NCBI GenBank assembly: GCA_964348015.1
Contig: CAYGBC010000050.1
Coordinates: 261,001 to 325,000, forward strand
From: an uncultured Eubacteriales bacterium
Lineage (GTDB): Bacteria > Acidobacteriota > Aminicenantia > Aminicenantales > Aminicenantaceae
Length of the DNA stretch: 64,000 nucleotides
Reading direction: 5' to 3'
Position numbers and translations under genes: made by a program. Below, piece by piece: positions 12,970-30,000 of the stretch (position 1 is the stretch's first letter; every line of letters begins with the position of its first letter). Below the pieces are notes generated by a model. The model made no database searches. It saw nothing but the letters and a program-made list of their open reading frames with translations, and had not been told where the DNA came from.

Positions 12970-14976
12970 TCAGGTTGACGGTCCGGAGGGGACGGATATC
13001 TTCTTTTTTTCGCCAAAGAGAGCCTGCTCTACGATCTCCGCAATATCCCAAATTTTCAGACTTTCTTCCATCTCCTTGTCCTTTATCGCATCATCAAACA
13101 TGGTGACACAGAAGGGGCAGGCCGTGGCGATCCACTCTGGATTTGTGGTCAAGGCCTCTTCCAGACGGAGGAGGTTGATTCTTTTTCCGATTTTCTCATC
13201 CATCCACATCCAGCCTCCCCCGGCTCCACAGCACAGGGAGTCGACCCGGGCATGTTCCATTTCCCGGATGTCCAGAGTGGGAATGGACTCTAAGATTTCT
13301 CTTGGAGGCTCGTAGATACCGCTGTACCGTCCGAGGTAACAGGGATCATGATAAGTCAGTCTTTTCTCCAGAGGATGATCGAATTTGAGGCGTCCGCTCC
13401 GAAAGGATTCCTTCAGAAAAGTCGCATGGTGCATCACATCACAACCGAAACCGAGCTGCGGGTATTCGACCTTGAGTGTATTGTAGCAATGGGGGCAAGT
13501 GGTCAGGATGCGATTGACCTTATAACGCTGCAACGTTTCGATATTGGTCTGGGCAAGGATCTGGTACAGGTATTCGTTGCCCACGCGCCTGGCCGGATCT
13601 CCGCAGCATCCTTCTTCCATCCCCAGAATAGCAAACTTGACGCCAAGATGGTGGAGAATTCGCGTCATCGACTCTGTCACTTTCCTGTTGCGGTCATCGT
13701 AGGACCGGATGCACCCCACGAAAAACAAGAAATCGATTTTTTCTCCGGGAATATCTGAAAGAATAGGGACATCCAACTCCTTCATCCAGTCGGCTCGGTT
13801 GTCACGCCCCATACCCCAGGGATTCGAGTTGTTTTCCAAACCTTTAAAGGCAGCGGTCAGCTCTTCGGGAAACCGGCTCTCCATCAGTACCTGATACCGC
13901 CGCATGTCCACAATCTTATCCACATGTTCGATGTAGACGGGGCAGTGCTCCATACAGGAGCGGCAGGTTGTGCATGTCCAGAGCTCGTCTTCCTGGATCA
14001 CGCTCCCCACAAGAGGAGGAGCGTCTTCCAGATCGTTTCCTCTGGCGCGGGCTTTGATGAGATGAGGTGCTCTCGAAGACATGTGGTCTTTTAAGTCATT
14101 GATGACTTTTTTGGGAGAGAGAGGCTTTTCTGTCAGATGGGCCGGACAGTGGTCCTGACATCGTCCGCACCGTGTGCAGGCATCAAGGTCCATCAGTTGC
14201 TTCCAGTTGAACTCCTCAATCTTGGACACGCCGAAGCTCTCTGCCTCCTCATCCTCCAGGTCTAACAGGTTCAGGGAGCCCTTCGGGTCCAGGGAGCGAA
14301 GGAGCATGTTCATCGGGGAACTGACGATATGGAAAAGTTTAGAGAAGGGGAGAATGGCGATGAAAACCAGGACGAGGATAAAGTGAATCCTGAAGACGAT
14401 CATGGCCATGAGGCCCTTGGCACTTGTGCTCAGGCCGACAAGGTCGAGCAGGGCGGCAAGGGCCTGACCTGCCGGCGCCCATGCATGCGCGTCCTTTCCG
14501 ATTACGGAAAGCCTCAGGCCTTCCAGGAAGATTCCGGTCAGAAGAATGAGCAAGATCAAAACAAGTGCACCTAAATCATCCAGGCGGTTATCCAGGCGTG
14601 GAGGGCGGGACACATAGCGCCTGATCATGGCCAGTCCCACACCCGCGATCGCAACGAGCGCTATCAAATCGAGGACAAAGGACAAAGGCCGGGCGATCCG
14701 GTGAGGCAGAACGAACATGAACTGCGTGATCACGATGACTGTGAGAGGCATCAATACGCCCACGAACAGGAACAGGTGGATGAGCCCAGGGAAAAAATCC
14801 TCCAGGATCCTTTTGTGAGCAATTCCCTCCACCAAGAAAGATTTTATCCGGGGTCCGGCAGGGCCGGAAGGTTCATATTCTTGTCCCACACGCCATAGGC
14901 GGAATCTTCGGCGGATTCCCCAAATGAAAACAATGAGTGCCAAAAGGATGAGGAAGATATCAAAAGCCTTGATCAT
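12970..14976 (-). CDS. Membrane-bound heterodisulfide-reductase-like protein (NarI heme-b domain + 2x[4Fe-4S] + 2 CCG domains)
   Basis: N-terminal TM helices with candidate His heme ligands, CTRCGRCQDHCP and CTTCRSCMEHCP, CCG domains EGCCG..CPHC and HDPCY..LCCGAGGG..ACPFC. Confidence 0.9.
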   Translation of the reverse strand: MIKAFDIFLILLALIVFIWGIRRRFRLWRVGQEYEPSGPAGPRIKSFLVEGIAHKRILEDFFPGLIHLFLFVGVLMPLTVIVITQFMFVLPHRIARPLSFVLDLIALVAIAGVGLAMIRRYVSRPPRLDNRLDDLGALVLILLILLTGIFLEGLRLSVIGKDAHAWAPAGQALAALLDLVGLSTSAKGLMAMIVFRIHFILVLVFIAILPFSKLFHIVSSPMNMLLRSLDPKGSLNLLDLEDEEAESFGVSKIEEFNWKQLMDLDACTRCGRCQDHCPAHLTEKPLSPKKVINDLKDHMSSRAPHLIKARARGNDLEDAPPLVGSVIQEDELWTCTTCRSCMEHCPVYIEHVDKIVDMRRYQVLMESRFPEELTAAFKGLENNSNPWGMGRDNRADWMKELDVPILSDIPGEKIDFLFFVGCIRSYDDRNRKVTESMTRILHHLGVKFAILGMEEGCCGDPARRVGNEYLYQILAQTNIETLQRYKVNRILTTCPHCYNTLKVEYPQLGFGCDVMHHATFLKESFRSGRLKFDHPLEKRLTYHDPCYLGRYSGIYEPPREILESIPTLDIREMEHARVDSLCCGAGGGWMWMDEKIGKRINLLRLEEALTTNPEWIATACPFCVTMFDDAIKDKEMEESLKIWDIAEIVEQALFGEKKKISVPSGPST

Positions 14977-15076: not shown

Positions 15077-15667
15077 TTAAAAACTCTTTCCTGGGGCCAG
15101 CATGACCTCATGGCAGTTCAAACACTTCTGGTTTTTTGGCGGCCCCTCGAATTCTCGGATGTGGCACTCTATGCATTCCATGACTGTGGGGCGGTTTGTT
15201 CCTCCCGTCATGTATTCATGCCCTGCAGTCCGGTGACAATCCACACATTCCAGGCCTTCTTCACGGTGATATCGGTGATTGAAACGGATCACTCTTTTTT
15301 TAACTGCGTAACCGAGCTCAAGAATAATTTCATGACATTCCAGGCATCTTTGAGAGGTGAGGTCATCGTCAGCCAGATATTCCGGAGGGGCAAGAGTATC
15401 GCGGTAGTGCCGGAACACATCCCATCCTTCAGGAGATAGTGAGGGCTCATCGGAATGACATTGATAGCATCTGGTCTGGTCTGCAGGATGCCCGTTAGAT
15501 TTCTTCCACAAGTCAAAAAGTTCGGGATGACACTGTTGACAGACACGTTCACTGGTGGCGGAGTACCGCACCAAGTAGGCCGTGATCGATCCGGCTCCAA
15601 TCAGCAGAAGAAGCAGAACGAGAGCGAATAATATTCGGAATCTTGTCCTGAATCTCCGAGAACTCAT
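15077..15667 (-). CDS. Membrane-anchored hexaheme c-type cytochrome
   Basis: N-terminal TM helix and six CxxCH motifs: CQQCH, CYQCH, CLECH, CVDCH, CIECH, CLNCH. Confidence 0.92.
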   Translation of the reverse strand: MSSRRFRTRFRILFALVLLLLLIGAGSITAYLVRYSATSERVCQQCHPELFDLWKKSNGHPADQTRCYQCHSDEPSLSPEGWDVFRHYRDTLAPPEYLADDDLTSQRCLECHEIILELGYAVKKRVIRFNHRYHREEGLECVDCHRTAGHEYMTGGTNRPTVMECIECHIREFEGPPKNQKCLNCHEVMLAPGKSF

Positions 15668-15668
15668 C

Positions 15669-16946
15669 TTAATGATTCACTTCAATCTGCAGTAAATAAA
15701 TTTCAGGCATCTCTTTGCCTAAAGGTGGGCCGACGAGAAGAGCTCTGTCTCCGGTGAAGCTCATGATCCGGGCTCCCCAAAAAGCCGGGATCTGCGGAAA
15801 ATCCATAGGGATAAGCCCTTTGATGTATCCCGGAGTGTCCTGGTCAAAAGCCACCTTTTCTCTTCCAGTTTGGAGGTCTAGCATCATTCCCGTATAGATG
15901 TGTTTATACAGAAGAATGCGCCCATTTCCGGATAGGTCGAAAAACTCAATCCTGGGAGCGACTTCGGATTTAAGATGCTTCAATCCAGATCCGTCAGTGT
16001 TCATCACGTATGTTCCCATGCCGTCAATTTTTTTCCCGCTGTAAGAGAAGACCAGTATTTTCCCGTCGTGACTGATGTCTGCCAAGCTGAACCAGCGGTC
16101 GTGGAAGTCGGTTATCCTCTTCATTCCTTTTCCACCCCAGCCCACAGAGTAGAGGTCGAAGTCGGTTTTTGCATCTGATGATTGAGCCCCGAATATGAGT
16201 TTTTCTCCATTCCCGCTCAGGCAGAAAACCCATCCGCCTCCCAGGAGCGGACGTCGAGGAAAGGAAGACCATTCCCATTCTGTGCCGTTGAAATCCGGGC
16301 TGAGGATGGTTTGCTGTTTTCCGTCTTTGGCGTCCAAGAGTATGATTCCACTCGCGCTTCCGTATCTTCTCGGGCCCAGATGGCCCTTAAGAAGACAAGC
16401 GATTCGCTGCCCTTCTCTGTCTATCGCATAGTTTGAGATCCGCTCCCAATCCTGGCTTTTAAACTCCAGCGATTTGATGTTCTTTTGGTTTAATGACTCT
16501 ATGGGAAAAGAAAAGATCCTCAGATCATTACTATCTGTGTTGATGATTCCCAGGTAGTGGTCGGTCATATTTTCAGGCTCCCCCAGAGTCAGCGGGAAGA
16601 CTGCCACTTGTCCGTTTCCGCTAATCAAGGGCGGTTTGGAGCCGACTAAAAGCGGGATGTTTTCGTAAGGGGCAGGGGCCATTTTGGTTCCGCTTCGGAA
16701 GAGCTCTTGCTGCTGGCCGGTGTCAAGATTCATGAGCATCACGGCTTTGGTGGGTATGTCGGCCTCCTTGATCTCGAGTACATACAACATCCATCGTCCG
16801 TCATCACTCAAACAGGGGAATCCAGCCTTGTTATTTCCAGAATAGGTCAGTCTTTGTATTCCAGTGCCGTTGGTTGATGGAAAGACAGATGCGGTCATAC
16901 AGAGGAAGAGAAAGGCCGCGGCAATCGGAGTGTATTTTTTTATCAT
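15669..16946 (-). CDS. Exported TolB/PD40-like beta-propeller protein
   Basis: Signal peptide MIKKYTPIAAAFLFLCMTASVFP and repeated LSDDGRW / ISGNGQV / LSGNGEK / ISHDGKI / LSGNGRI blades. ATG 16946 overlaps the upstream stop codon (ATGA). Confidence 0.8.
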   Translation of the reverse strand: MIKKYTPIAAAFLFLCMTASVFPSTNGTGIQRLTYSGNNKAGFPCLSDDGRWMLYVLEIKEADIPTKAVMLMNLDTGQQQELFRSGTKMAPAPYENIPLLVGSKPPLISGNGQVAVFPLTLGEPENMTDHYLGIINTDSNDLRIFSFPIESLNQKNIKSLEFKSQDWERISNYAIDREGQRIACLLKGHLGPRRYGSASGIILLDAKDGKQQTILSPDFNGTEWEWSSFPRRPLLGGGWVFCLSGNGEKLIFGAQSSDAKTDFDLYSVGWGGKGMKRITDFHDRWFSLADISHDGKILVFSYSGKKIDGMGTYVMNTDGSGLKHLKSEVAPRIEFFDLSGNGRILLYKHIYTGMMLDLQTGREKVAFDQDTPGYIKGLIPMDFPQIPAFWGARIMSFTGDRALLVGPPLGKEMPEIYLLQIEVNH

Positions 16947-19252
16947 TCTCCTTGACCTCCGGGTAACTTCTCGATCTGAACCACTGTATCTTTTAAGCCC
17001 AGACCTCCGCCAACAGGATCCTGTTTTGATAGGATTATCTCCATCGGATTCACGCCGTTTTCTTTTGAACTCCACCAGATCAGAGAGGTGTCTCTATCTT
17101 TGCTTTTGAATCGTTGGCCTCTGGCCACGCTTCCCACTGCAGTATGGCCCAGACCTTCAGCAAGAGCGACGGAATCCGGATGGATCCGGTTGGTGGTGAG
17201 AACCTTTATTCTCAAAGAGCCCACGGGTGAAGTCACGCGCACTCGTTCATTATTCTTGATCCCCAACTGATTGGCGACTTTTGCGTTGATCCACAGGCGA
17301 TTTTCATGGAGTATCTCCCGGGCCCACTTGCTGTTGGCTGTCCCGTTTCCCTCGAGATTAGATGTGAACGTGGTCAGGACGAACTCGTTCTTCTCTGTAT
17401 GTGTGTGCGATTTGATCGGTCGGTAATCGAGAGGTGGAGAAATCTTCTCCCCTCGAAAAGTTGAACGTATCCTGACGAGGAGAGTTTTTGAGTCATCCTT
17501 TCTCTCGGATGTGGGTTCTATCCAGAATCCTTTATTTCTCAGGCTTTCCAGCCCTTCCGGGGTTCTCGACTCTAAGAGGGAAGACACTTGCTGGCTGACA
17601 TAGTCAGATGTGTTCTTGAAAGGAAGTTTTTGGGATGGGCGTCCACCGATCCGGCGAGCGAGCTCCAGGGACATGTTCCCGATTTCAACGGATTCACCCA
17701 TGGGTTGAAAGGACGGTTCGAGCAGCTTTCCCGCATCAAACGCGGGGGACCGCAGTGCCTTGGCTGCGCTCACCAGAGAGACCACCGGCTGTTGGAGATT
17801 CAGGATAAATTGTCCATCCAGGGGAGGCGCACTGCTTAAACCCCAAGCCTCGAGAAACGTGGCAGCGGGGAGGATTAAATCTGCCAGATTGGCAGTCTCA
17901 GTCATATGAGTATCCATGACCACCAGGAAGGGAACGGTATTTTCATTTCCAAGGAAGCGACTGGTCGATTGACAGTCCGGTTCAGAGTAAGCGGGATTTG
18001 CCAGATAGGCAAAGTACAAGTCGATCGGGATGTTGGCTTCCTCGAGTTCCGCGATTCCACTGATCGTTTTTCCCAAGTTCGGCGGGATGTGAGTCGGCTG
18101 TTCTTGGATTGTGTTTTGAGCGACAAAACGGCGAGGCAAGAAAAGGCCTCCTTCTTCTTGAAGGTTTCCCACAAGCCAGTTCAAGAGAGAGACACATCGT
18201 GCATTCTGAGTACCGTTCTCATGGTCTGTGAGACCCCCTCCATAAATTGCCACAGATGGTTTACGCGTCGCGAACTCCACAGCCAACTGCACGATATCCG
18301 AACCTTTGACTCCGCTTTCTCTTTCGGCCGATTCAAGGGAATAGGGAGCGAGAAGGCGCTTGAGGTCCATGAGAGTGAAGTCTGTCCTTGTATCTATAAA
18401 ATCCGAGTCTGCCAATCCTTTGTTAATGATCACTCTCGCCATGGCCAGAGCGACGATACCGTCCGTTCCAGCCTTGAGGGGAAACCAGGCATCGCTTTTT
18501 GCGGCTGTTTCGGACATCCTCACGTCGAATGTCACAAGCTTTGCGCCTTTCTCGATTCGGGCAAGGATCAGTCTTCGGGCAAAACCGATAAAAGAGTCAT
18601 GGTTGGCAAACGGATTGGCTCCAAAATTAAATACCGTGCGACTCTTTGCGATATCTTCAGTCAAAGTCGGAACATCAACCATTGATAGGGAAGCCGCATG
18701 GCGGTTCAGATTCTTCAATGTGTTCCTGTCGATGACGCGGGGAGTGTTGAGAGTTGAAAGAAACCGGTCGAACAGAGAGTCGTCCTGTCCTGTGTCGATC
18801 ACGAATTCAGAGATCCTCTCTTCCTCCAGCATCTTTCGGATGCGGAGGCTGAGCATGGAATAGACTTCGTCCCATGTTATTCGTGTCCAGAGGCCGCTTC
18901 CGCGCGCTCCCGCTCTCTTGAGAGGATACAGAAGGCGTTCGGGATCATTCACCAGATTGATCCCCGCAATCCCTTTGGCACAAATTCCACCGCGGTTGTT
19001 GGGATGGTCCGGATTCCCAAGAATTTGGACCAATCTTTCTCCATCGAGATAGGCGATTATCCCACATCCCGCCGGGCACTGTTGGCATGTCGTGGGGATG
19101 GCATGGAGAGCTTTGAGCGATGTCCTGGAAACGGCATTAATTTTTTTATCTGTGGTCGTCATACCGCTTGATCCGAGGCTCGCCGCGGTTCCCGCGATCC
19201 AGGTCAATCCAGTTTTCATGAATCTTCGTCTGGAGATTCTTTGTATTTTCAT
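16943..19252 (-). CDS. Tat-exported molybdopterin-oxidoreductase-fold subunit (PsrA/TtrA-like), canonical Mo ligand apparently absent
   Basis: Twin-arginine signal SRRRFMK, [4Fe-4S] motif CQQCPAGC..CAKG, GANP, KLVTFDVRMSETAAKSDAW.PLKAGTDG, and the C-terminal WINAKVANQLGI..VRVTSPVG domain. Start placed at ATG 19252. Confidence 0.88.
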   Translation of the reverse strand: MKIQRISRRRFMKTGLTWIAGTAASLGSSGMTTTDKKINAVSRTSLKALHAIPTTCQQCPAGCGIIAYLDGERLVQILGNPDHPNNRGGICAKGIAGINLVNDPERLLYPLKRAGARGSGLWTRITWDEVYSMLSLRIRKMLEEERISEFVIDTGQDDSLFDRFLSTLNTPRVIDRNTLKNLNRHAASLSMVDVPTLTEDIAKSRTVFNFGANPFANHDSFIGFARRLILARIEKGAKLVTFDVRMSETAAKSDAWFPLKAGTDGIVALAMARVIINKGLADSDFIDTRTDFTLMDLKRLLAPYSLESAERESGVKGSDIVQLAVEFATRKPSVAIYGGGLTDHENGTQNARCVSLLNWLVGNLQEEGGLFLPRRFVAQNTIQEQPTHIPPNLGKTISGIAELEEANIPIDLYFAYLANPAYSEPDCQSTSRFLGNENTVPFLVVMDTHMTETANLADLILPAATFLEAWGLSSAPPLDGQFILNLQQPVVSLVSAAKALRSPAFDAGKLLEPSFQPMGESVEIGNMSLELARRIGGRPSQKLPFKNTSDYVSQQVSSLLESRTPEGLESLRNKGFWIEPTSERKDDSKTLLVRIRSTFRGEKISPPLDYRPIKSHTHTEKNEFVLTTFTSNLEGNGTANSKWAREILHENRLWINAKVANQLGIKNNERVRVTSPVGSLRIKVLTTNRIHPDSVALAEGLGHTAVGSVARGQRFKSKDRDTSLIWWSSKENGVNPMEIILSKQDPVGGGLGLKDTVVQIEKLPGGQGE

Positions 19253-20165: not shown

Positions 20166-20759
20166 TTATTCGTCTTCTGTCAGTTTAGCCTCGACTGAAT
20201 CAATATCCAGGCCAATATAAAATGCTTGCGGATCTGTTCCGCTTTCCGGTTTGATGACCTGCACAGCATTTCCCGCCACAGCTCTTGAGATATCGCTCTC
20301 CGGGTCGTTCAAGTCCCCGAACATAATGGCGTCAGTCGGGCAGGCTTCCACACATGCAGGTGCGAGGCCGGCATCCACTCTGTGATGGCACCAGTAACAT
20401 TTTTCTGCAATTTTTCGAGTGGGATGAATATACCTTACCCCATACGGACAGGAAGCCATGCAGTAACGACAGCCGATGCACCTGTGCGGGTCGATATAGA
20501 TAATGCCATCCGGACGCTTGATACCGGCGTTCACTGGGCAGACAGTCACACAGATCGGATCTTCGCAGTTGTTGCAGAGGATGGGCAGGAAAAATTCTCT
20601 AGAATGAGGATAACGTCCTTTTTCCACTCGTTTGACCCAATTCCTCCAGACTCCAAGCGGAACATCGTTTTCGCTTTTGCAGGCCATGGCGCAGGTGTTG
20701 CATCCGATGCATTTCCTGAGATCGAACAATACACCCAATCTTTTATTATGGGCCTTCAT
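20166..20759 (-). CDS. NrfC/PsrB/DmsB-type 4x[4Fe-4S] electron-transfer subunit
   Basis: CIGCNTCAMAC, CNNCEDPICVTVCP, CIGCRYCMASCPY and KCYWC..PACVEACP. No signal peptide of its own. Confidence 0.95.
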   Translation of the reverse strand: MKAHNKRLGVLFDLRKCIGCNTCAMACKSENDVPLGVWRNWVKRVEKGRYPHSREFFLPILCNNCEDPICVTVCPVNAGIKRPDGIIYIDPHRCIGCRYCMASCPYGVRYIHPTRKIAEKCYWCHHRVDAGLAPACVEACPTDAIMFGDLNDPESDISRAVAGNAVQVIKPESGTDPQAFYIGLDIDSVEAKLTEDE

Positions 20760-21979
20760 TCTGTTTCTCTTTCCCCTTCATTCGCATTATTTTCTGGTTC
20801 TTCTGTCTGTTTATGGGTTTGATCCTCTTTCTCCGGGTGAGGTGTCTGATCATCTTCCTTTGGTGTGTGTTCGGAAACAGAGCTGTCTTTTTTTTCATCA
20901 ACCTGTTCTTTCCCCTGTTCTTCTTCTTGAACTTTATCAGTAACTTTTGTTTCTTCCTCTTTGGGAGTTGCTTCTTTCAAGCGTGGATCTTCCTTTTCCG
21001 CTTCTTCTTTTTTTTCTTCGGGCGCTTCCTGCTCGTGTTTTATTTCTTCTTTCTTGGTTTCTGAATCCTTTTCGGGCAGAGTTTGAGGCTCTGGTCCTTC
21101 CTTTTTAACTGCTCCTGTATCTTTTTCTGGAGTTTTGTCTTCGATCCTCATGTCCTCGAGCCAGGATTTTATTCTGTTCGCAACGCTTTTCCGGGATCTG
21201 TAACCAAGATAGGCGCACACACCCAGAACAATTGTCAGTACGAGAGCGCTGGCCCAATCGTTGAGAGGAGATGACCTGATCGAACTCAGATGTGTCGGGC
21301 CCATGACGAAATTGGCCATCGTGCGCACATCATGACAGCGGGAACAGAAAGCTTTGTACACGCGTTTGGTTCCATGAGCAGAATCCTGATAATGACAGCT
21401 GATGCAGATCCTCATATCGAATCTTTCAGAAATGTCTCCTTTGCGGTGACCGGATATTTTCCCCAGGGAACCTCCTCCAAAAATTCTCTGGACCATAACT
21501 TCGGCATGGCAGTTGGAGCAGGTTTCGCCGATGTTTTTTTCGTGCACTGAGGAGGCGGGATCATCATGAGGAAGGACGTGATGTTTGGTGTGACAGTGAA
21601 AGCAAAGAGGTAGCTCCTTTCCTGGAGAAGGAGAGGAAAATGTCAGGTGGACATTTTTCAGGTATTCTTCGGCTTCCTCCGGGTGGCATCTCGCACAATC
21701 CACCTTGATCGATCCCTCTCTGAAATGAAGGTAAGGATTAGCTTGAGTGTGGCAGTCCACGCAGAGCAAATGGCCTCTGTGGTGGATATCCTGATTCCAT
21801 TTCTCCGGATCGACAAAGAGTGAACGCACCTTTCCGCCACTCGTGATCTGGGAAATTTCAGGCTGGCCATGGCATAAGAGGCATTCTTTGTCCGCATAAG
21901 AATTCGATTGAGAATACGACTTCAGTGCAAAGAGAGATAATGAAACGATAAGAAGTGTGGCGAGTCTTTTCAACCGCAT
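20756..21979 (-). CDS. Heptaheme c-type cytochrome with C-terminal TM helix and long acidic tail (start uncertain, 21979-22150)
   Basis: Signal-like MRLKRLATLLIVSLSLFALKSYS, seven CxxCH motifs (CLLCH, CVDCH, CARCH, CFHCH, CSNCH, CISCH, CSRCH), TM segment ASALVLTIVLGVCAYLGY, then about 130 aa rich in E/K. Confidence 0.88.
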   Translation of the reverse strand: MRLKRLATLLIVSLSLFALKSYSQSNSYADKECLLCHGQPEISQITSGGKVRSLFVDPEKWNQDIHHRGHLLCVDCHTQANPYLHFREGSIKVDCARCHPEEAEEYLKNVHLTFSSPSPGKELPLCFHCHTKHHVLPHDDPASSVHEKNIGETCSNCHAEVMVQRIFGGGSLGKISGHRKGDISERFDMRICISCHYQDSAHGTKRVYKAFCSRCHDVRTMANFVMGPTHLSSIRSSPLNDWASALVLTIVLGVCAYLGYRSRKSVANRIKSWLEDMRIEDKTPEKDTGAVKKEGPEPQTLPEKDSETKKEEIKHEQEAPEEKKEEAEKEDPRLKEATPKEEETKVTDKVQEEEQGKEQVDEKKDSSVSEHTPKEDDQTPHPEKEDQTHKQTEEPENNANEGERETE

Positions 21980-28418: not shown

Positions 28419-28443
28419 GGGAGAGACGGAAGAAAAAACGAAG

Positions 28444-30000
28444 ATGGCAAAGATTACCATAGATGAAAAACCGATAGATATCGAGGAAGGCACCACTGTT
28501 CTCAAGGCCGCAGAGACAGCGGGGATATCCATCCCTCATCTGTGTTATCATGACGCTTTTCCGCCGGAAGGCAGTTGCCGTATATGTCTGGTTGAGATCG
28601 AGGGATTGCCCAAGCTTGAGCTGGCGTGTTCGACTCAGGTCCGGGAGGGGATGAAAGTTTTGACTCAGAGTGAAAAAGTCGTTGAAGCGAGGAAAGGCGT
28701 GTTGGAGTTCCTGCTCGCTGAGCATCCTCTGGATTGTCCGATTTGCGACAAGGCCGGTGACTGCAAACTCCAGGATTATTACGATGAATACGGCCTCTTC
28801 GAAAGCCAGTTTAAGGAATCCAAAGAAAAGAGAGAGAAGACGGATAAAATCGGAAAATCCCTTATCCATGATGAAGAAAGATGCATCCTCTGCCGGCGGT
28901 GTGTCCGTTTTTTAGCGGAAATCACCAAAACACAGGAGTTGGGCGTTTTTGAGAGAGGTGTTCACTCAAGAGTGAATATATACGACCTCACTCCAGTCGA
29001 TAACAACTATTCGGGTAATCTTGCTCAGATCTGTCCTGTGGGGGCTATTACAGACGAAGATTTCAGGTTTAAGACGCGAAGCTGGTTTTTAAAAAAAGGT
29101 GAGTCGATCTGCCCATTGTGCAGCCGCGGGTGCAACATCACGATCGAGTACCATCCGGGTTTTTCCCACTTCGGAGTTCCCAGAAGAGTGTACAGGATAC
29201 AGTCCCGCAAGAACCAAGAAATCAACGGTTTTTGGATTTGTGACTTGGGTCGTTATGGGCACTCGTACTTGGGTGAAAACCGTCTGGACGAGATTGTGAT
29301 AAACAATAAAGAATGGAATATCGAGCCAAATTGGGAAAATATATCCTCCTTTATCTGTCAGCAGCTGAAAAAAATAGTGGAAGGAAAGAAGGTGTCCCAG
29401 ATAGCTTTAATCCTGAACACGTGGCTGTCCAACGAGGAACTCTTCCTGATTCATAAAATCTTCAGAAATGATCAGAAATTGAACAGGATATTCTTCGCGG
29501 ACAATTCCCAAGCGGAGAAAGATGATTTTCTGCTGACCGCTGAACGGACTCCAAACAAAAAAGGGGCCCGGGAAATCGGATTTGATATCCAACCCGTGAA
29601 GCCGGGAGCTTTAGAGGACAAGACGGATATGCTGCTTGCCTTTGGCCCCTTCCTTGCAGAGAAGTTCACCGTATCTGATCTCAAGAAAGCTCTGGAAAAG
29701 ATTGAGACCAAGGTTCTTTTCAGTTCTCATGCGAATGACTTGAATTCCCTTTTCGATATCGTGTTCCCGACCGCTTTGATTGCGGAAAAGGGGGGCTCCT
29801 TGACAAATGTCGATGGGAAGATCCAGAAATTTTCACCTGCTTTTGATTCTCCGGGCGATAGCCTCCCGGAGTGGAGGATGCTTTCTGACTTGGGGAGAAA
29901 ATTTGGAGTTAATTCTTCCTTTTACGAAGGATTCACCACTCCGGAAGCCATCTTCACAGAAATCGGGAAGGCCGTTCCTTTTTTTAGAGAGCCAAAGTGA
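28444..30000 (+). CDS. nuoG: NADH-quinone oxidoreductase subunit G (short form)
   Basis: N1b CYH..GSCRIC..AC, N5 HPLDCPICDKAGDC, N4 CILCRRC..CPVGA and N7 CPLCSRGC..WIC. 518 aa. Confidence 0.92.
   Translation: MAKITIDEKPIDIEEGTTVLKAAETAGISIPHLCYHDAFPPEGSCRICLVEIEGLPKLELACSTQVREGMKVLTQSEKVVEARKGVLEFLLAEHPLDCPICDKAGDCKLQDYYDEYGLFESQFKESKEKREKTDKIGKSLIHDEERCILCRRCVRFLAEITKTQELGVFERGVHSRVNIYDLTPVDNNYSGNLAQICPVGAITDEDFRFKTRSWFLKKGESICPLCSRGCNITIEYHPGFSHFGVPRRVYRIQSRKNQEINGFWICDLGRYGHSYLGENRLDEIVINNKEWNIEPNWENISSFICQQLKKIVEGKKVSQIALILNTWLSNEELFLIHKIFRNDQKLNRIFFADNSQAEKDDFLLTAERTPNKKGAREIGFDIQPVKPGALEDKTDMLLAFGPFLAEKFTVSDLKKALEKIETKVLFSSHANDLNSLFDIVFPTALIAEKGGSLTNVDGKIQKFSPAFDSPGDSLPEWRMLSDLGRKFGVNSSFYEGFTTPEAIFTEIGKAVPFFREPK

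Follow-up and report, generated by a model that had tools for sequence, protein, structure and literature searches.

A MopB-fold subunit with lysine at the molybdenum-ligand position, encoded in a conserved seven-gene operon of Aminicenantes

The DNA analysed here is a 64,000-nucleotide stretch from an uncultured member of the class Aminicenantes (contig CAYGBC010000050.1 of assembly GCA_964348015.1, positions 261,001 to 325,000), hereafter called the window; all positions refer to it. On its minus strand it carries a gene for a protein of the molybdopterin-fold (MopB) family, which lies in an operon of seven genes. Where enzymes of this family have the cysteine or selenocysteine (Sec) that ligates molybdenum (Mo) or tungsten (W), the encoded protein has a lysine. 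Here we describe this protein, the distribution of the ligand loss, the cofactor genes of the carrier genomes and the operon, and weigh what the function of the protein might be.

The MopB-fold gene and its ligand position

The gene and selected elements of its product are the following.

16943..19252, minus strand: MopB-fold subunit of 769 amino acids (aa), with a twin-arginine translocation (Tat) signal, the FS0 four-Cys motif and Lys at the Mo-ligand position
19214..19234, minus strand: twin-arginine motif S-R-R-R-F-M-K, seen in the translation and kept in the consensus of the family alignment (A1)
18980..19087, minus strand: FS0 motif C56-x2-C59-x3-C63 ... C91, followed by A-K-G (translation and A1)
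18713..18715, minus strand: codon of Lys180 (coding strand AAG), which the profile alignment places at the Mo/W ligand Cys/Sec
17333..17362, minus strand: domain IV segment SNLEGNGTAN, corresponding to PVHTFARTQN in PsrA and THSRTQN in Cys-bearing relatives

The start codon was placed at MKIQRISRRRFMK (position 19252) from orthologues, which gives a protein of 769 aa ending at 16943. It matches the Pfam domains Molybdop_Fe4S4 (PF04879), Molybdopterin (PF00384) and Molydop_binding (PF01568), corresponding to the three-domain MopB architecture. None of the NCBIfam equivalog models was reached; the best scores were obtained with PhsA (250 bits, cut-off 694) and QrcB (188 bits, cut-off 440). The family profile was derived from A1, an alignment of 23 MopB homologues with 54-79% identity that contains well over 100 invariant columns, and more than 120 protein clusters were found at 54-78% identity. 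The FS0 residues C56, C59, C63 and C91 are invariant across A1 and are also present in the more distant tier 2 relatives described below. The original prediction had stated that the Tat signal and the N-terminal four-Cys cluster are intact, and both can indeed be read in the translation. Outside FS0, Cys427 (17970-17972, minus strand), in the motif PDC(Q/E/R)S, is near-invariant in the family; PsrA has Val at this position in the profile alignment.

The open reading frame (ORF) encodes LNTPRVIDRNTLKNLNRHAAS at 18689-18751, within the interval 18680-18760 for which a replacement of the ligand Cys by Lys had been proposed by eye. In a family-profile search of the PDB sequences, Lys180 was placed in one column with the ligands of three enzymes: Cys173 in Thermus PsrA (2vpw), Cys in Shewanella ArrA (6cz7) and Sec in an F420-dependent formate dehydrogenase (9t1s). 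This bears out the proposed replacement. With single-sequence phmmer searches of the PDB, the ligand position was shifted by one or two residues or fell in a gap, with no Cys within reach, and this ambiguity of one or two residues was resolved by the family profile. In the ligand loop of A1, Arg176 and Lys180 are invariant and N181 and N183 nearly so, while no conserved Cys, Ser or Asp is present in the 23 sequences. Thus, neither Cys, Sec, Ser nor Asp was aligned with the Mo position in the profile comparison with PDB sequences. Among 30 full-length orthologues from Aminicenantes genomes the ligand column was tallied as K in 24, R in three, N in one and E in one. The nearest Cys-bearing relatives, from two genomes of the same class (G017 and G135; approximately 32% identity), read HTSVCEGG with the Cys in the column of Lys180. 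The C-terminal H-x3-R-T motif, a putative cofactor contact that had likewise been suspected to be altered, has lost both its His and its Arg in the alignment of the domain IV segment with PsrA. With more than 50 orthologues (23 in A1 and 30 from genomes) and a surrounding clade of 41 sequences (see below), comparison of the sequences confirms that the loss of the ligand Cys is real and neither a chance event nor a one-off.

Distribution of the ligand loss and cofactor biosynthesis in carrier genomes

A scan of the genome collection revealed 35 Aminicenantes loci at 53-78% identity. Relatives at 34-40% identity (tier 2) were found in Thermodesulfobacteriota, Syntrophaceae, Chloroflexi, Bacillota, KSB1 and others, and relatives at 27-31% identity (tier 3) in Desulfosporosinus, Desulfitobacterium and Symbiobacteriaceae. 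The residue in the ligand column is arbitrary in tier 2 (I, L, M, F, S, T, H, N, G or K); in tier 3 it is Cys in most sequences and Ser in two members from Anaerolineae. The PhsA model scored 606 bits for the Cys-containing Desulfosporosinus members of tier 3, and PhsA, not QrcB, was the best NCBIfam model for the window protein and for all sampled relatives. Overall, only 31 of 134 aligned sequences have Cys in the ligand column, the set consisting of 124 representatives of a library clustered at 50% identity and ten other sequences from this analysis.

In a quick maximum-likelihood tree the Aminicenantes sequences formed a clade with a Shimodaira-Hasegawa-like approximate likelihood ratio test (SH-aLRT) support of 100 and a stem length of 0.57. 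This clade is nested in a clade of 41 sequences (SH-aLRT 92), every member of which is devoid of the ligand and which adjoins the clade containing the Cys-bearing relatives. The root was assigned by hand to the QrcB-like gene of the window genome, and bona fide QrcB and ActB sequences were left out; with this outgroup, Cys-bearing PhsA-like sequences stand between the 41-sequence clade and the QrcB-like gene. The window protein thus belongs to a distinct branch of the Psr/Phs lineage that has no ligand. Given the census of the tiers and the tree, the ligand loss is old, common to several phyla and probably distinct from that in the QrcB/ActB-like line.

Genes of cofactor biosynthesis were searched for by their domains. 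In the window genome (G000; 2.9 Mb, 88% complete), MoaC, MoeA_N, MoeA_C and the C-terminal domain of MoaA were not found. The same four domains were not found on the closed chromosome CP070825.1 (G178), which also carries an orthologue. The sole MoCF-domain gene of the window genome is CinA, and MoCF occurs in G178 only as CinA; the PF00994 matches of both genomes were therefore rejected as cofactor genes. Among the 35 further carriers, MoaC was detected in six, MoeA_N in seven and MoeA_C in seven; ten have at least one of the three and 25 none, so that 26 of all 36 orthologue-carrying genomes lack detected MoaC, MoeA_N and MoeA_C. Across 151 genomes of the class the same searches detected MoaC in 110 and MoeA_N in 113, with agreement between the two at the genus level; they therefore work in this class, and the carriers are depleted rather than enriched in cofactor genes. 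MoaE (PF02391) was absent from the searches of five genomes (G000, G021, G048, G079 and G103), three of which have MoaC and MoeA; as it is also not found in genomes with MoaA, MoaC and MoeA, it is uninformative. The large subunit of molybdopterin synthase may be divergent in these five genomes or may have been missed by the MoaE search.

None of the other MopB genes of G000 and G178 encodes a Cys or Sec ligand. In G000, one is Qrc/ACIII-like (ACIII, alternative complex III) with a gap at the ArrA Cys, another is NuoG/FdsA-like with Asp-Tyr where FdsA has Cys-His, and a third encodes a short NuoG. A short NuoG-type subunit of 518 aa is encoded in the window at approximately 28440-30000 on the plus strand (L004:268-1824); only the tail of its MopB domain is left, and it presumably belongs to a nuo operon approximately 9 kb from the seven-gene cluster. 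Genome G135 served as an internal control: its Cys-bearing MopB paralogue lies on the same contig as MoaC and MoeA, at a distance of 2-4 kb. At this locus (contig C17:12042-19102) an iron-sulfur (FeS) gene precedes the Cys-bearing paralogue, which reads HTSICEGG around its Cys; for the ligand-less family no linkage to MoaC or MoeA was seen.

The seven-gene operon and its relation to known complexes

The remaining six genes of the operon, in the order of transcription and with the MopB gene between the third and the fourth, are listed below.

20756..21979, minus strand: heptahaem cytochrome c with signal peptide, C-terminal membrane helix and long charged tail; seven CxxCH motifs, Pfam Cytochrome_C7
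20166..20759, minus strand: four-cluster FeS subunit, 197 aa, 16 Cys, no signal peptide; TtrB 206 bits, DsrO 193 bits
19266..20162, minus strand: NrfD/PsrC-type membrane subunit, 298 aa; Pfam NrfD 1.3e-46, positions 9-309 of 313
15669..16946, minus strand: exported beta-propeller protein, 425 aa; AlphaFold2 (AF2) model with a mean predicted local distance difference test (pLDDT) score of 85.8, and Foldseek matches
15077..15667, minus strand: membrane-anchored hexahaem cytochrome, NrfH/NapC/QrcA-like; six CxxCH motifs, N-terminal hydrophobic helix, weak NCBIfam matches to QrcA and NrfH
12970..14976, minus strand: NarI-like membrane domain fused to an HdrD/DsrK-like FeS part with two CCG domains, 668 aa; Pfam Nitrate_red_gam, Fer4_8 and CCG

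All Aminicenantes loci of sufficient length, which come from two families of the class, carry these seven genes in one and the same order: heptahaem cytochrome, FeS protein, NrfD, MopB, beta-propeller, hexahaem cytochrome and NarI/HdrD fusion. Given this constant order and an identity of 54-78% for the orthologues of the MopB protein, the MopB gene is under strong purifying selection. Literature searches and a review of NrfD-containing complexes (PMC8076601) yielded no description of this seven-gene operon. Tier 2 relatives have only the FeS, NrfD, MopB and cytochrome genes; this set corresponds to the parts list of Qrc, in another order and with another MopB line.

The TtrB and DsrO matches of the FeS subunit begin at profile position 39-40, past the signal region of the models. 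The NrfD subunit has approximately eight hydrophobic segments, and its orthologues (61-92% identity) are always encoded directly upstream of the MopB gene. On the other side, the start of the propeller gene overlaps the MopB stop codon by 4 nucleotides. The propeller protein has no Pfam match above the cut-off, and Foldseek matched its model to the oligogalacturonate lyase 3pe7, to propellers of S9 peptidases and to TolB. The NCBIfam matches of the NarI/HdrD fusion (TfrB, LdhH, GlpC, TmcB, DsrK and HmcF) all remain below their cut-offs. The heptahaem cytochrome has a single hydrophobic segment (ORF residues 299-317). This C-terminal helix is followed by a tail of approximately 145 aa with many E, K and T residues (20756-21200, minus strand). 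Since most orthologues are only about 300 aa long, the tail is confined to the window genome and a few relatives.

The original prediction had placed the protein in a Psr/Ttr-type gene set. This holds for the FeS and NrfD partners, but not for the invariant operon with its two multihaem cytochromes, propeller and NarI/HdrD fusion. Among solved structures, PsrA/PhsA of T. thermophilus (2VPZ/2VPW) comes closest in the profile search (E 5e-59), PhsA is the best NCBIfam model, and the Tat signal, FS0, the domain order and PsrB/PsrC-type partners are shared. The window protein differs in the exchange of Cys173 for Lys, in the loss of the domain IV H-x3-R-T motif, in the gene order B-C-A and in its hosts, which are mostly without cofactor synthesis.

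A parallel to QrcB and ActB, two subunits that keep the fold without the cofactor and act structurally, had also been drawn. It holds in that the window protein is ligand-less and likely structural, but the protein belongs to neither family. QrcB is a subunit of the menaquinone reductase QrcABCD of Desulfovibrio and a cofactor-less MopB homologue by experiment (PMC6303296, PMC13059093). Shared with it are the periplasmic MopB fold without Mo ligand, the partners (a four-cluster FeS protein, an NrfD-type subunit and a membrane-anchored hexahaem cytochrome) and the likely role as scaffold rather than catalyst. However, the score of the window protein (188 bits) is below the QrcB cut-off (440), and the gene order is cytochrome-FeS-NrfD-MopB instead of ABCD. 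Moreover, the FS0 four-Cys motif, which predicts a cluster, is invariant here, whereas QrcB is described as being without a redox cofactor, and the NrfD partner has 298 aa compared to approximately 400 aa and ten helices in the Qrc type. Elsewhere in the window genome, contig C59 encodes a second ligand-less periplasmic MopB protein of 819 aa (QrcB model 340 bits, cut-off 440) in a Qrc/ACIII-like locus, with a small cytochrome gene before the MopB gene and an FeS gene after it; the FS0 four-Cys motif is kept in this protein.

ActB is a fusion of approximately 1000 aa of MopB-like and FeS parts that is related to ArrAB (PMC5928083, PMC10100899), and was found to be a cofactor-less MopB homologue by experiment (PMC10100899). 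Its B1 domain in ACIII (6F0K, 6LOD, 8K9E) resembles the window protein as a cofactor-less MopB fold placed on an FeS/NrfD quinone module with multihaem cytochromes. Here, in contrast, MopB (769 aa) and FeS (197 aa) are encoded by separate genes, homologues of ActD, ActE and ActF were not found in the seven-gene operon, and the PDB match is marginal (6lod_B, E 5e-5). Taken together, the protein falls outside the QrcB, ActB and PsrA/PhsA families and represents a line of its own, derived from Psr/Phs, in which FS0 is retained and the NrfD partner is short.

At the level of the operon, HmcABCDEF and DsrMKJOP of sulfate reducers are similar in combining a periplasmic multihaem cytochrome, an FeS protein, an NrfD-type subunit, a NarI-like cytochrome b and an HdrD/DsrK-like CCG protein, and the FeS subunit comes close to DsrO (193 bits, cut-off 200). 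Both systems, however, are without a MopB-fold subunit, a beta-propeller and an NrfH-type cytochrome, while in the operon every NCBIfam score stays below its cut-off and the NarI and HdrD parts are fused.

Probable function of the MopB protein

The MopB protein very probably does not contain Mo/W-bis(pyranopterin guanine dinucleotide) (Mo/W-bisPGD), because most of its carriers are without cofactor genes while most genomes of the class have MoaC. We consider it likely that it is a subunit of the Psr/Phs lineage that neither binds this cofactor nor has molybdoenzyme activity. Most likely it is a non-catalytic iron-sulfur and scaffold subunit of a seven-protein membrane respiratory complex. Of the two possibilities left by the original prediction, a scaffold or an enzyme with unusual active-site chemistry, the scaffold is well supported by the missing cofactor genes and by the K/R/N/E column.

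Several roles could be combined in such a subunit. The FeS partner lacks a signal peptide, and MopB is always encoded after the FeS and NrfD genes; MopB might carry the FeS subunit through the Tat pathway on its own signal in a hitch-hiking manner. PsrA likewise exports PsrB by means of its Tat signal. In addition, MopB could cap and stabilise the FeS/NrfD quinone module and serve as a platform on which the neighbouring multihaem cytochromes and the beta-propeller dock, possibly with FS0 as a relay. Such a complex would resemble Hmc and DsrMKJOP in its layout, with haems on the periplasmic side, the FeS/NrfD module and a cytochrome-b/HdrD module directed towards the cytoplasm. It would connect these haems and the quinone pool to a thiol/disulfide or electron-carrier site of the HdrD type in the cytoplasm, and probably couples redox partners in the periplasm or outside the cell to the quinones and to an acceptor in the cytoplasm.

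The evidence for a cofactor-free MopB protein appears strong but is not conclusive, as a number of observations weigh against it. Some cofactor genes are present in ten of the 35 further carriers, most carriers are incomplete metagenome-assembled genomes, and the cofactor genes cluster, so that a single missing contig can remove all of them. Conservation also remains high in most of the classical segments for cofactor binding, which are similar to those of Cys-bearing relatives; examples are GANPFANHD, TFDVRMSETAAKSD, VVMDTHMTETA..LAD..LPAAT.LE.WG and the lysine of C-A-K-G after the fourth FS0 Cys. In AioA and IdrA the cofactor is held without any protein ligand (PMC10100899). The only structural model of the protein, calculated with AF2 from the 23 sequences of A1, has a mean pLDDT of 49 and is too poor to show whether the pocket is filled. 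Finally, the closed chromosome CP070750.1 (G172) is without MoaA and MoaC, yet encodes a Cys-bearing MopB protein, so that missing MoaA and MoaC may not always mean that no cofactor is used. This protein (C1:538806-540335) is cytoplasmic and acetylene hydratase (Ahy)-like, its Cys aligns with Ahy Cys141, and nothing relevant adjoins its gene. Elsewhere (L110:5431-7436) G172 carries a divergent MoeA-like gene (MoCF and MoeA_C behind an unmatched N-terminus of 290 aa) followed by a MOSC gene; this gene set may reflect cofactor salvage, or the Cys-bearing protein may be a second cofactor-less MopB.

It is quite unlikely, in our estimate, that the protein still binds Mo/W-bisPGD, either ligand-free as in AioA and IdrA or via Lys or carbamyl-Lys, and carries out an unknown redox reaction. 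Such retention would be consistent with the conserved cofactor-binding segments and FS0, with a basic residue in the ligand column of 27 of the 29 tallied orthologues, with the precedents of AioA and IdrA (PMC10100899) and with the cofactor genes of some carriers. It is difficult to reconcile with the 26 of 36 carriers, one closed chromosome among them, without MoaC, MoeA_N and MoeA_C, and with the arbitrary residues (I, L, M, F, S, T, H, N) in the ligand column across the surrounding 41-sequence clade. A metal-ligating Lys does not fit the R found in three and the N or E found in two orthologues, and carbamyl-Lys was rejected as ligand on account of these variants. With AioA and IdrA the protein shares a ligand position without Cys, Sec, Ser or Asp. 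Both, however, keep the cofactor, need its biosynthesis, have a [3Fe-4S]-type motif and are joined by a Rieske partner, whereas the N-terminal motif here is of the four-Cys [4Fe-4S] type and the operon encodes no Rieske protein.

Alternatively, the old active-site funnel might be re-used independently of Mo, with Lys/Arg180 and Arg176 binding an anionic substrate or a partner such as the propeller and FS0 as sole redox centre; this we regard as unlikely. The invariance of Arg176 and Lys180 and the near-invariance of N181 and N183 in the otherwise ligand-less loop of A1 would be explained, as would the strict retention of FS0 although its usual electron partner is gone; the translationally coupled, clade-specific propeller gene and the long stem branch of the clade (0.57) point in the same direction. 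On the other hand, K180 is not universal, such subunits can be purely structural, as QrcB and ActB show, and the conservation may merely reflect the packing of an emptied pocket. That the emptied Mo site now serves as a docking or catalytic pocket formed with Arg176, Lys/Arg180, FS0 and the propeller, and that the complex performs an undescribed periplasmic redox reaction rather than just carrying electrons, is in our view improbable as well. A decaying, functionless remnant of PsrA/PhsA is hardly conceivable. The catalytic ligand is lost and the PhsA score is far under its cut-off, but the ORFs are intact in a family of more than 120 protein clusters with more than 100 invariant columns in A1, the position in the operon does not vary across two families of the class, and translation of the downstream gene is coupled. 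These conservation data in practice refute a pseudogene, and this reading was rejected.

Known MopB subunits without cofactor are QrcB, ActB, Nqo3 and FhcB (PMC6303296, PMC13059093, PMC10100899). The protein described here adds a further ligand-less, probably cofactor-free line, which lies inside the Psr/Phs lineage. According to a proposed rule, cofactor-less "catalytic" subunits accompany ten-helix NrfD proteins (PMC6303296); the short NrfD partner of the ligand-less MopB protein is at odds with it. The seven-gene operon is a candidate for the main quinone-linked respiratory complex of this uncultured class.

Aminicenantes are a widespread group of sediments and the subsurface. In the databases the orthologues of the MopB protein are named "molybdopterin-dependent oxidoreductase", "thiosulfate/polysulfide reductase chain A" or "selenocysteine-containing dehydrogenase", and owing to these names metabolic reconstructions could wrongly credit the group with sulfur or formate respiration.

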